Shown: piece by piece, positions 8,179 to 9,495 of the stretch | Layout: each line of letters opens with the position of its first letter | How positions within the stretch are numbered: position 1 is the first letter of the stretch | Source: a virus | Taxonomy: Duplodnaviria; Heunggongvirae; Uroviricota; Caudoviricetes | Reading direction: 5' to 3' (one strand) | DNA: 11,731 nt | IMG/VR virus record: IMGVR_UViG_2778261527_000005 | Notes under the pieces: model-generated | Database searches by the model: none | Seen by the model: the letters and a program-made list of their open reading frames with translations, nothing else | Told to the model about the DNA's origin: nothing | Position numbers and translations under genes: made by a program

Positions 8179-8802
8179 ATGACAATACAGGAAATAATTC
8201 AGCAACGTAATATTCGTAGCTTGTTTCATTTTACACATAGCGATAATCTAACTTCCATTTTAGATAATGGCCTTATGTCTCGTTCAGAACTTGATAATGA
8301 AAATAATGAATATAATTATAATGATGAAGAAAGGATTGATGGTCATCCAGATGCGATTTGTTTGTCCGTAAGTTACCCTAATGCAAAAATGTTTTATAAA
8401 TATAGATGTTTAAAGCCTGGGGACTGGGTTATATTAGAAATCAATCCATCTGTTCTTTGGGCTAAGGATTGCGCTTTTTATCCTACCAACGCAGCTTCGA
8501 ATAACGTTCGTTTTATAAATCTTGATTTGATGAAAGGAGCTGAGGCATTTAGTGCTTTGTTTTCAGAGAATGTTTTTGGGATTCAGAGAGATGTAAACCT
8601 TCCAAGTGAGTATACGACGGATGTTCAAGCTGAAATACTGGTATTTGAAAAAATTCCTCCCTCATATATTATAAGCACTTTTCACCCTAACAAAGAATCT
8701 GCTGAACATTTCAAGAGATTATATCCACAGACAATACAGAGATCTTATGATAATCTTAATGCTAGAACATTTTATTCTCAGAGGCATTATTATTTAGGAT
8801 AA
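8179..8802 (+). CDS. darT: DarT-family (DUF4433-like) ssDNA ADP-ribosyltransferase toxin
   Basis: 207 aa. N-terminal LFHFTHSDNLTSILDNGL matches the DarT signature (hydrophobic-YHxTHxxNLxSIL), and a C-terminal QAEILVFEKIPP segment matches the catalytic-Glu region (E-x-L-V-P). Size is typical for DarT. The gene is AT-rich. Confidence 0.6.
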   Translation: MTIQEIIQQRNIRSLFHFTHSDNLTSILDNGLMSRSELDNENNEYNYNDEERIDGHPDAICLSVSYPNAKMFYKYRCLKPGDWVILEINPSVLWAKDCAFYPTNAASNNVRFINLDLMKGAEAFSALFSENVFGIQRDVNLPSEYTTDVQAEILVFEKIPPSYIISTFHPNKESAEHFKRLYPQTIQRSYDNLNARTFYSQRHYYLG

Positions 8803-8805
8803 GTT

Positions 8806-9495
8806 ATGGCCGTTAGACCTGTTTTCGTCCCTACAAACGCAGGGAACTTACTATCGATCACGAAGGATGTGGATTTTCCTTGGGCTCCTGGTATGGCTAA
8901 AACGCAAAAGCAAAAATCGATCAGGGCGTTACATACAGCAGCGAATGAGCAGGGATTGAACTCTTTGTTGGAAATTTCTAGTAAATCCGAAGATGCGCTG
9001 GGGGTAGCACTTAGTGCATTTAATCTAAGAATAAAGACGAAAAGACTTGGGAAAGAGTTTACAGTTGAATCTGCATTTCAAGCAAGTAAAGTATTTGAAA
9101 TGGGAGGACCATATGTCGATATCTTAGATAAAAGCTCGATAGAAGCAAAAAAAGATATGAGATTAAAGGAATCTGGGGGATTAGTTAACTTCAAATTTTA
9201 TAATACAATATGGCCCATTGTCCCCAGGACTGCTTTTTATGATTGGTTATATTTGAGTGCGCTCAATCAAAACAAAAATCTAGCACTCCATCTATTAAAT
9301 TTTGATGGATTTACTGATATTGAATTTAATCCAGCGAAATCTATTAATTGCCAAGCCAGAGCAGCTGCACTTTTTGTCTCTTTAGTAAGACGAAATATGT
9401 TAGATGATGTTTTATCTTCAAAGGATGGTTTTTTATCAAAATTAGCATCTCATTATGGTGTTGAAAATTATTCTATTCAACATACATTGATATGA
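8806..9495 (+). CDS. NADAR-like (YbiA/DUF1768-like) protein, candidate antitoxin/ADP-ribosyl-base hydrolase partner of the DarT-like gene
   Basis: 229 aa. Start is 3 nt after the upstream stop, with an AGGA Shine-Dalgarno. The translation contains SAFN-(14 aa)-ESAFQASKVF, which parallels the YbiA-type FSNF-(14 aa)-SEHYFQAQKF signature with the same spacing. The following SSIEAKKDMR resembles SSPMVAARMGR. The YbiA sequence is recalled from memory and not verified by search. Confidence 0.45.
   Translation: MAVRPVFVPTNAGNLLSITKDVDFPWAPGMAKTQKQKSIRALHTAANEQGLNSLLEISSKSEDALGVALSAFNLRIKTKRLGKEFTVESAFQASKVFEMGGPYVDILDKSSIEAKKDMRLKESGGLVNFKFYNTIWPIVPRTAFYDWLYLSALNQNKNLALHLLNFDGFTDIEFNPAKSINCQARAAALFVSLVRRNMLDDVLSSKDGFLSKLASHYGVENYSIQHTLI

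Follow-up and report, generated by a model that had tools for sequence, protein, structure and literature searches.

The gene pair at 8179-9495 of the window, as the whole 11.7-kb stretch of DNA analysed here is called, is almost certainly a DarTG1 toxin-antitoxin module for anti-phage defence, as described for E. coli C7. Over its whole length the window matches positions 1201331-1213061 of the E. coli H2 chromosome (NZ_CP028733) with 100% identity, and the pair is already known. Both genes are named in the public record of the H2 sequence, where RefSeq calls the toxin gene "DarT ssDNA thymidine ADP-ribosyltransferase family protein" and its partner "DarT1-associated NADAR antitoxin family protein". 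Among 5,426 complete E. coli genomes, 29 carry the cassette with both genes annotated by RefSeq under these names, and the intact pair was found with 100% identity in about ten genomes other than H2. It represents one more copy of a system with published structure, chemistry, physiology and phage counter-measures. Its value is that of a positive control, with family, partner type and genomic niche rightly recognised from the raw sequence. A modest gain comes from the context: the att could be pinned to a 30-nt ssrA fragment and the cargo slot delimited, and sister prophages hold uncharacterised genes at the same position as well as a toxin-swapped DarTG1 allele.

Toxin and antitoxin genes

The features of the cassette are as follows.

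8114-8142, + strand: candidate darTG1 promoter, found by eye (-35 TTGTGG at 8114-8119, 17-nt spacer, extended -10 TGT-TATATA at 8134-8142)
8179-8802, + strand: darT1, predicted guanine-specific ssDNA ADP-ribosyltransferase toxin, 207 aa (Pfam DarT; PDB 8BAQ/8BAR/8BAS)
8806-9495, + strand: darG1, NADAR antitoxin, predicted ADP-ribosyl-guanine glycohydrolase, 229 aa (PF22397; PDB 8BAT)
9498-9522, + strand: terminator-like hairpin (9498-9517) followed by a T run (TTTTT), from a terminator scan

The DarT/DUF4433 signature and the catalytic glutamate in AEILVFE, both named in the original prediction, were confirmed. With 86.3 bits against a cutoff of 22.5 (E=3e-24) the Pfam DarT model (DUF4433, PF14487) matches residues 16-182 of the darT1 product, and the catalytic residue is E152, the first E of AEILVFE (motif QAEILVFE). 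Comparison with the PDB entries 8BAQ, 8BAR and 8BAS, deposited as "E. coli C7 DarT1", gave E=2e-138, and only three natural substitutions and the engineered E152A separate the protein from the crystal construct. The two toxins are 98.6% identical (3 of 207 residues differ), with Y47, S189 and F198 in the window and C, Y and L, respectively, in C7. Y47 adjoins the NAD-phosphate contacts N48 and D49; position 47 varies across active-looking DarT1 alleles, where Y, C and L occur. S189 and F198 belong to the C-terminal tail and are not covered by the Pfam DarT domain. None of the differences to C7, in toxin or antitoxin, affects a functional residue.

Mutagenesis of C7 DarT1 revealed E152, N104, M71, R52 and D54 to be essential for toxicity (Schuller 2023, PMC11543638). 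In its structure F18 and F72 stack on the nicotinamide, the guanine is held by K74, Y75 and N104, and the Tyr of the H-Y-E motif is replaced by S63 (PMC11543638). H17, F18, T19, S26, M33, R35, N48, D49, R52, D54, S63, M71, F72, Y73, K74, Y75, N104, Q150 and E152 are all present in the DarT1 of the window, which has the DarT1-specific active site with S63 for the H-Y-E Tyr and N104 for H119 of DarT2. An apparent loss of the adenine contact G32, as the paper numbers this residue, was dismissed as a numbering detail: the window has L32, and C7 likewise reads G31-L32-M33.

Lower scores were obtained with other models. The NCBIfam toxin_DarT equivalog reached 29.1 bits with a cutoff of 150, and the PADLOC DarT match is mostly N-terminal. 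We read these weak scores as those of models built on DarT2-type toxins and not as evidence against membership. In PHROGs, no family was found for DarT1 or the NADAR protein.

The partner is of the NADAR and not of the macrodomain type, as had been proposed for the DarT1 branch. Its product reaches 299.4 bits (E=1.6e-89) with PF22397 (NADAR-DarT1, "DarT1-associated NADAR antitoxin"), where the cutoff is 27, and the match extends over profile positions 1-210 of 212. No macrodomain match was obtained with Pfam at E<=1, and the generic NADAR/DUF1768 Pfam model was not among the matches reported for this protein. The Geobacter lovleyi NADAR (PDB 8BAT) aligns with residues 1-212, N-terminal extension included (E=1.3e-71). 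The approximately 60 additional N-terminal residues in comparison to YbiA, noticed beforehand as an oddity, are real, and the oddity disappears: they correspond to the beta1-beta2-alpha1 extension published for DarT1-associated NADARs, with its proposed DNA-binding groove (PMC11543638). Compared to C7, 228 of 229 residues are identical (99.6%), with A31 where C7 has S. The residues E88, K95, K115, D171 and E173 are all present; in C7 NADAR, E88, K95 and D171 are required for hydrolysis and K115 for rescue (PMC11543638).

Both open reading frames are located on the + strand with the toxin upstream of the antitoxin. Their tight coupling was found as described in the original prediction: the darT1 stop TAA at 8800-8802 is followed by GTT and the NADAR ATG at 8806, leaving a 3-nt gap, and a Shine-Dalgarno sequence, AGGA at 8796-8799, is contained in the 3' end of darT1. 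The pair is also AT-rich as stated there, with 34.7% GC compared to 46.0% and 43.4% in the two flanking integrase genes. As a sequence feature, the terminator ascribed to the pair could be verified as well. With a fold energy of -13.5 kcal/mol (z = -3.8) the hairpin at 9498-9517 was more stable than all shuffled versions (0 of 200 as stable). It is the single terminator after the NADAR gene and sits between the convergent NADAR and integrase genes.

The likeliest candidate for the darTG1 promoter lies across the right edge of the probable phage att arm, at 8114-8142. A consensus scan revealed no strong sigma-70 promoter directly upstream of darT1; this candidate was missed because the final base of its -10 hexamer is not T. 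Over the 128 nt upstream of darT1 the window and C7 are identical. Judged from its sequence, the H2 allele is probably expressed and active.

Prophage context at ssrA

The pair is flanked by the following elements.

8021-8050, - strand: displaced ssrA (tmRNA) 3' fragment, the att core at the int-proximal prophage end (identity to the ssrA 3' end)
8051-8125, no strand: probable phage att arm, with the motif CGTATCCTTTGTGGATACTT at about 8105-8125, kept whatever cargo follows
9528-10697, - strand: phage tyrosine integrase (ORF; RefSeq "site-specific integrase"; PHROG 1, E=1.4e-61)
10658-10876 (RefSeq 10658-10864), - strand: excisionase (PHROG 2917, E=3.7e-45; annotated excisionase in C7)

The location of the pair as prophage cargo between int and att, also part of the original prediction, was substantiated, with the ssrA 3' end at 8021-8050 on one side and the integrase stop codon at 9528 on the other. 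On the - strand, 8021-8050 reproduces the 3'-terminal 30 nt of ssrA exactly, as seen in the annotated ssrA of strain FMU073332 (locus positions 7895-7924). In strains without the right-hand element, homology to the left-hand island of the window stops at 8050, inside the annotated ssrA. Rfam gave a partial tmRNA match at 8021-8101 (E=1.2e-6), and ARAGORN detected no complete tmRNA in the window. From the identity to the ssrA 3' end, the partial Rfam match and the lack of a whole tmRNA we conclude that 8021-8050 is a displaced ssrA 3' fragment and the att core. Other Rfam matches in 7700-9700 (IsrM with 47.9 vs 376 bits, Plastid-ycf2, snoRNA) were far below the gathering scores and were discarded as partial or chance matches.

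A motif related to that in the att arm, CGGnnCTTTTGCGGAnnTT, is shared by ET300, W409, TA8571, HeN100 and VTB96816v, which carry different cargos, and is located there about 90-100 nt away from the ssrA core. Since the motif is kept across cargos, 8051-8125 was assigned to the phage att arm and not to the cargo. The motif at about 8105-8125 may serve as a binding site of the integrase or an accessory factor. The conserved block at 8083-8125 contains an inverted repeat (GTATCC-N5-GGATAC) and was considered as a darT operator. This was rejected as the primary interpretation, since prophages with unrelated cargo have a related motif equally far from their ssrA core, and the block is more likely an att-arm site.

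Transcription of the integrase gene runs in the direction of the pair and the att fragment, convergent with the pair, and the excisionase gene is located upstream of it and overlaps it. The order xis, int, cargo, att is a lambda-type layout with the cargo inserted between int and att. A lambdoid prophage of ~40 kb begins with this module in C7 and includes lysis, terminase, portal, capsid and tail genes. The H2 carrier has decayed to a remnant, with a truncated tail-fibre gene after int and xis. Searches with 8051-9527 as query gave no match in the phage collection (blastn, distant mode) or the plasmid collection (megablast). With no sequenced phage in that collection carrying the pair and no PHROG family, the term phage cargo is based on the prophage context only.

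To the left of the att fragment, a separate island was observed that likewise uses ssrA. It carries a P4-type integrase (6625-7935), a large serine recombinase, two ParB/RepB-like genes and an ankyrin-repeat protein.

Relation to known systems and mode of action

At the sequence level, all defining features of DarTG1 that were tested are present in the pair. The E. coli C7 DarTG1 system (8BAQ/8BAR/8BAS; PMC11543638) has the same genes in the same order, the same 3-nt gap and the same ssrA-integrase slot, with 99.1% nucleotide identity over 8000-9600 and all functional residues identical. The two differ in the carrier prophage, ~40 kb in C7 and a remnant in H2, and at 3 + 1 residues. The DarT1-NADAR pair of Geobacter lovleyi (8BAT) shares family and architecture and is a distant orthologue, with 48-57% identity of the NADARs and 35-40% of the DarT1s relative to C7 (PMC11543638). 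DarTG2, found in Thermus aquaticus, M. tuberculosis and EPEC, shares the ART fold and Pfam family of the toxin, the ADP-ribosylation of ssDNA bases undone by an enzymatic antitoxin, and phage defence. In contrast, DarT2 modifies thymine N3 in TNTC and its antitoxin DarG consists of a macrodomain and a toxin-binding domain, whereas the partner in the window is without a macrodomain and the toxin exhibits S63/N104 instead of the DarT2 Tyr/His. Assignment to DarTG2 was rejected on the missing macrodomain in the NADAR product and on the toxin_DarT equivalog score, which stays at 29.1 with a cutoff of 150.

ScARP and pierisin belong to other ART lineages, outside any two-gene toxin-antitoxin cassette. 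Guanine ADP-ribosylation is common to them and DarT1, and the ScARP modification is reversed by NADARs (PMC11543638). On the antitoxin side, AdfN (T4 gp30.3) and the NADAR/YbiA proteins are related by superfamily and by the removal of ADP-ribose from guanine in DNA. AdfN, however, is an orphan phage-encoded counter-defence without toxin, YbiA is without the beta1-beta2-alpha1 extension, and DarT1-associated NADARs use D171 where the superfamily has Glu.

The original description of DarTG1 in phage defence is reportedly that of LeRoux 2022, as later papers describe it. For the C7 pair, DarT1 alone was found to be lethal or bacteriostatic in E. coli, with rescue by cognate or non-cognate NADAR (PMC11543638). 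DarT1 modifies guanines of ssDNA, not of dsDNA, with a relaxed motif preference, and in the crystal structure the ribose C1 is bonded to guanine N2 (PMC11543638). The resulting ADP-ribosyl-guanine is removed by NADARs, not by DarG macrodomains (PMC11543638). Placed in the MG1655 chromosome with its native promoter, darTG1 blocks RB69 and other phages, T-even phages without AdfN among them (Johannesman 2025, PMC11825919). Phage counter-defences have been described as well, with AdfA binding DarT1 and AdfN acting as an orphan NADAR (PMC11825919).

For the H2 pair, chemistry, toxicity and rescue, and phage defence are taken by analogy from this literature on proteins with 98.6% and 99.6% identity. 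Because the 128 nt upstream are identical to C7, we assume with high confidence that the C7 mechanism applies. With NAD+ as the donor, DarT1 would ADP-ribosylate guanine in ssDNA at the N2 amino group, and DNA modified in this way would not be replicable. Translation of the NADAR gene is probably coupled to that of darT1 by the 3-nt gap and the Shine-Dalgarno sequence inside the darT1 end. DarG1 would strip ADP-ribose from guanine, keeping the host chromosome clean in uninfected cells. Upon infection the balance would shift to DarT1, resulting in ADP-ribosylated phage DNA and a block of phage replication, for which the infected cell would probably be sacrificed. As accessory cargo, the pair sits in the slot flanked by the integrase gene and an att derived from ssrA, in a lambdoid prophage that is a remnant in H2.

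A main function as an addiction module, stabilising the ssrA prophage or island by killing or arresting cured cells with defence being secondary, is unlikely. The terminal position of a toxin-antitoxin pair in a mobile element, beside int and att, is in accordance with such a function, as is the decay of the element in H2 around an intact pair that recurs with 100% identity in about ten other genomes. The antitoxin is, however, an enzyme acting on the product and not a labile toxin binder, a poor fit to post-segregational killing, and the near-identical C7 system defends MG1655 from phage under its native promoter (PMC11825919). Both roles can also coexist. Considerably less probable still is an inactive relic in H2, caused by the three DarT1 substitutions or by promoter loss in the decayed prophage. 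The remnant state of the carrier, the proximity of residue 47 to the NAD-binding N48 and D49, and a scan without a strong consensus promoter would point in this direction, but both frames are full length with all functional residues intact, and the upstream 128 nt are those of C7, whose native promoter drives defence. Also, position 47 is variable (Y, C, L), the other two substitutions are outside the Pfam DarT domain, and an active NADAR left alone beside an inactive toxin would not be expected to remain 100% conserved in about ten genomes.

Hardly any weight can be given to the reading as a divergent DarT-like/NADAR-like pair with base specificity and antitoxin mechanism still to be established, although this was how the original prediction described it. 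The weak match to DarT2-type models (toxin_DarT 29 bits vs 150; PADLOC mainly N-terminal) and the generic NADAR/DUF1768 Pfam match that was not reported would agree with divergence. Opposed to this, the proteins are 98.6% and 99.6% identical to the C7 model proteins, with which specificity and mechanism were worked out, and the dedicated Pfam antitoxin family matches over the full length. Divergence of both proteins from textbook members could not be upheld, and neither could the openness of specificity and mechanism, since modification of guanine N2 and NADAR hydrolysis are already published (PMC11543638). Almost all of the checks suggested with the original prediction have in fact been carried out before for this pair of proteins. 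We retain the assignment of the pair as a DarTG1 module.

Variable cargo slot and second DarTG1 allele

In other E. coli, the space between this ssrA fragment and this integrase is taken by at least four alternative cargos. The slot contains a single gene of 258-264 aa in ET300 and VTB96816v (PHROG 7259), a 271-aa + 127-aa pair in W409 (PHROGs 17809 and 5176) and a 271-aa + 81-aa pair in TA8571 (PHROGs 3630 and 35771). With the int 3' end and att flanks shared and the cargo differing, the pair in the window is prophage accessory ("moron") cargo. No significant Pfam or PADLOC assignment was obtained for the alternative cargos of ET300, VTB96816v, W409 and TA8571. The 271-aa protein of W409 showed a sub-threshold TPR_1 match, and the 127-aa protein weak PADLOC matches to HEPN_IX (E=0.0013) and to an orphan methyltransferase (E=0.0089).

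A second DarTG1 allele occupies the same slot in HeN100 and some ETEC strains. Compared to the pair in the window, its DarT1 is 55% and its NADAR 86% identical. The nucleotide identity rises from ~60% to ~80% at the gene junction and reaches ~97% in mid-int. This pattern suggests mosaic exchange, in which the toxin gene may have been replaced separately.

We consider it possible, though rather doubtful, that lambdoid prophages integrating at ssrA use the slot for the exchange of anti-phage cargo, with the alternative cargos being undescribed defence genes and the toxin gene diversifying independently of the enzymatic antitoxin. If this were the case, an enzymatic antitoxin directed at the product would allow the toxin gene to be swapped alone, for example to escape phage inhibitors that bind DarT1. 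A separate toxin replacement would also fit the observed rescue of non-cognate DarT1s by NADARs (PMC11543638).

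Variable cargo between ssrA and the integrase

In sister prophages of the one that carries DarTG1, different genes fill the slot between the matching ssrA fragment and the integrase:

L003 (strain ET300) 4407-5204, minus strand: PHROG 7259 alone
L008 (strain VTB96816v) 487-1266, minus strand: PHROG 7259 alone
L005 (strain W409) 880-2068, plus strand: PHROGs 17809 and 5176
L006 (strain TA8571) 532-1602, minus strand: PHROGs 3630 and 35771

Neither Pfam nor PADLOC matched any of these four alternative cargos significantly; the only hits were a sub-threshold one to TPR_1 for the first W409 protein and, for the second, weak PADLOC matches to HEPN_IX (E=0.0013) and to an orphan methyltransferase (E=0.0089). 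We consider the alternative cargos candidate accessory or defence genes.

At window 8083-8125 an inverted repeat, GTATCC-N5-GGATAC, is accompanied by a GATC site. Prophages whose cargo is unrelated have a motif similar to this block, CGGnnCTTTTGCGGAnnTT, at an equal distance from the ssrA core. The block is probably an att-arm protein-binding site.

DarTG1 alleles, naming and the C7 prophage

A second DarTG1 allele occupies the slot that matches window 8179-9495 in other strains:

L007 (E. coli HeN100) 894-2210: second DarTG1 allele, found also in ETEC1730, 1717 and 1718

Compared with the window pair, the toxin of this allele is only 55% identical, the antitoxin 86%. Nucleotide identity to the window changes abruptly: it is about 60% on the darT side of the darT/nadar junction, about 80% beyond it and about 97% from mid-int onwards. 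In the second-allele toxin, E is found in place of D54.

In RefSeq, the product of window 8179-8802 bears the name "ssDNA thymidine ADP-ribosyltransferase", which is inherited from the family; according to literature, guanine specificity is that of the DarT1 branch (Schuller et al. 2023, PMC11543638). For the antitoxin, "DUF6977 family protein" is still used in some records.

In the published DarTG1 model strain C7 (L009, 2902000-2950000), the prophage beginning at the DarTG1 end adjoins torT/torR at its far end, not ssrA/smpB. This position suggests that part of the chromosome was inverted or that two lambdoid prophages recombined with each other. Genes for the effectors NleG and EspJ are located at the torT/torR-side end.

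Neighbouring elements at ssrA

The left-hand part of the window holds a separate element integrated at ssrA, with about 34% GC, and a further gene in a bacterial island:

window 2600-7935, minus strand: separate ssrA-integrated island
window 6625-7935, minus strand: P4-type integrase
window 4786-6342, minus strand: large serine recombinase, following the P4-type integrase and overlapping the first ParB/RepB-like gene
window 3900-4796 and 3007-3903, minus strand: two consecutive ParB/RepB-like genes
window 618-1856, minus strand: ankyrin-repeat protein of 412 aa, in a bacterial island

The 412-aa protein matches the candidate defence family PDC-M72A in PADLOC (E=3.6e-14), and merely generic ankyrin repeats may be behind this match. 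In Rfam, the Salmonella sRNA IsrM is matched in part on the minus strand of window 7953-8083, at 47.9 bits, well short of the gathering score of 376. Since this match lies chiefly over a terminator-like hairpin just past the ssrA fragment, it probably reflects common island-end sequence and not an IsrM gene.

An additional ssrA 3' fragment was located in strain H2, about 8.9 kb right of that in the window:

L001 (strain H2) 22888: additional ssrA 3' fragment

After it comes a P2-like prophage with int, CI and other genes, and therefore at least three elements are arranged in tandem at ssrA in H2. Genes for a GIY-YIG protein and a cytosine methyltransferase lie between the two ssrA fragments, together with a frameshifted restriction-enzyme gene.
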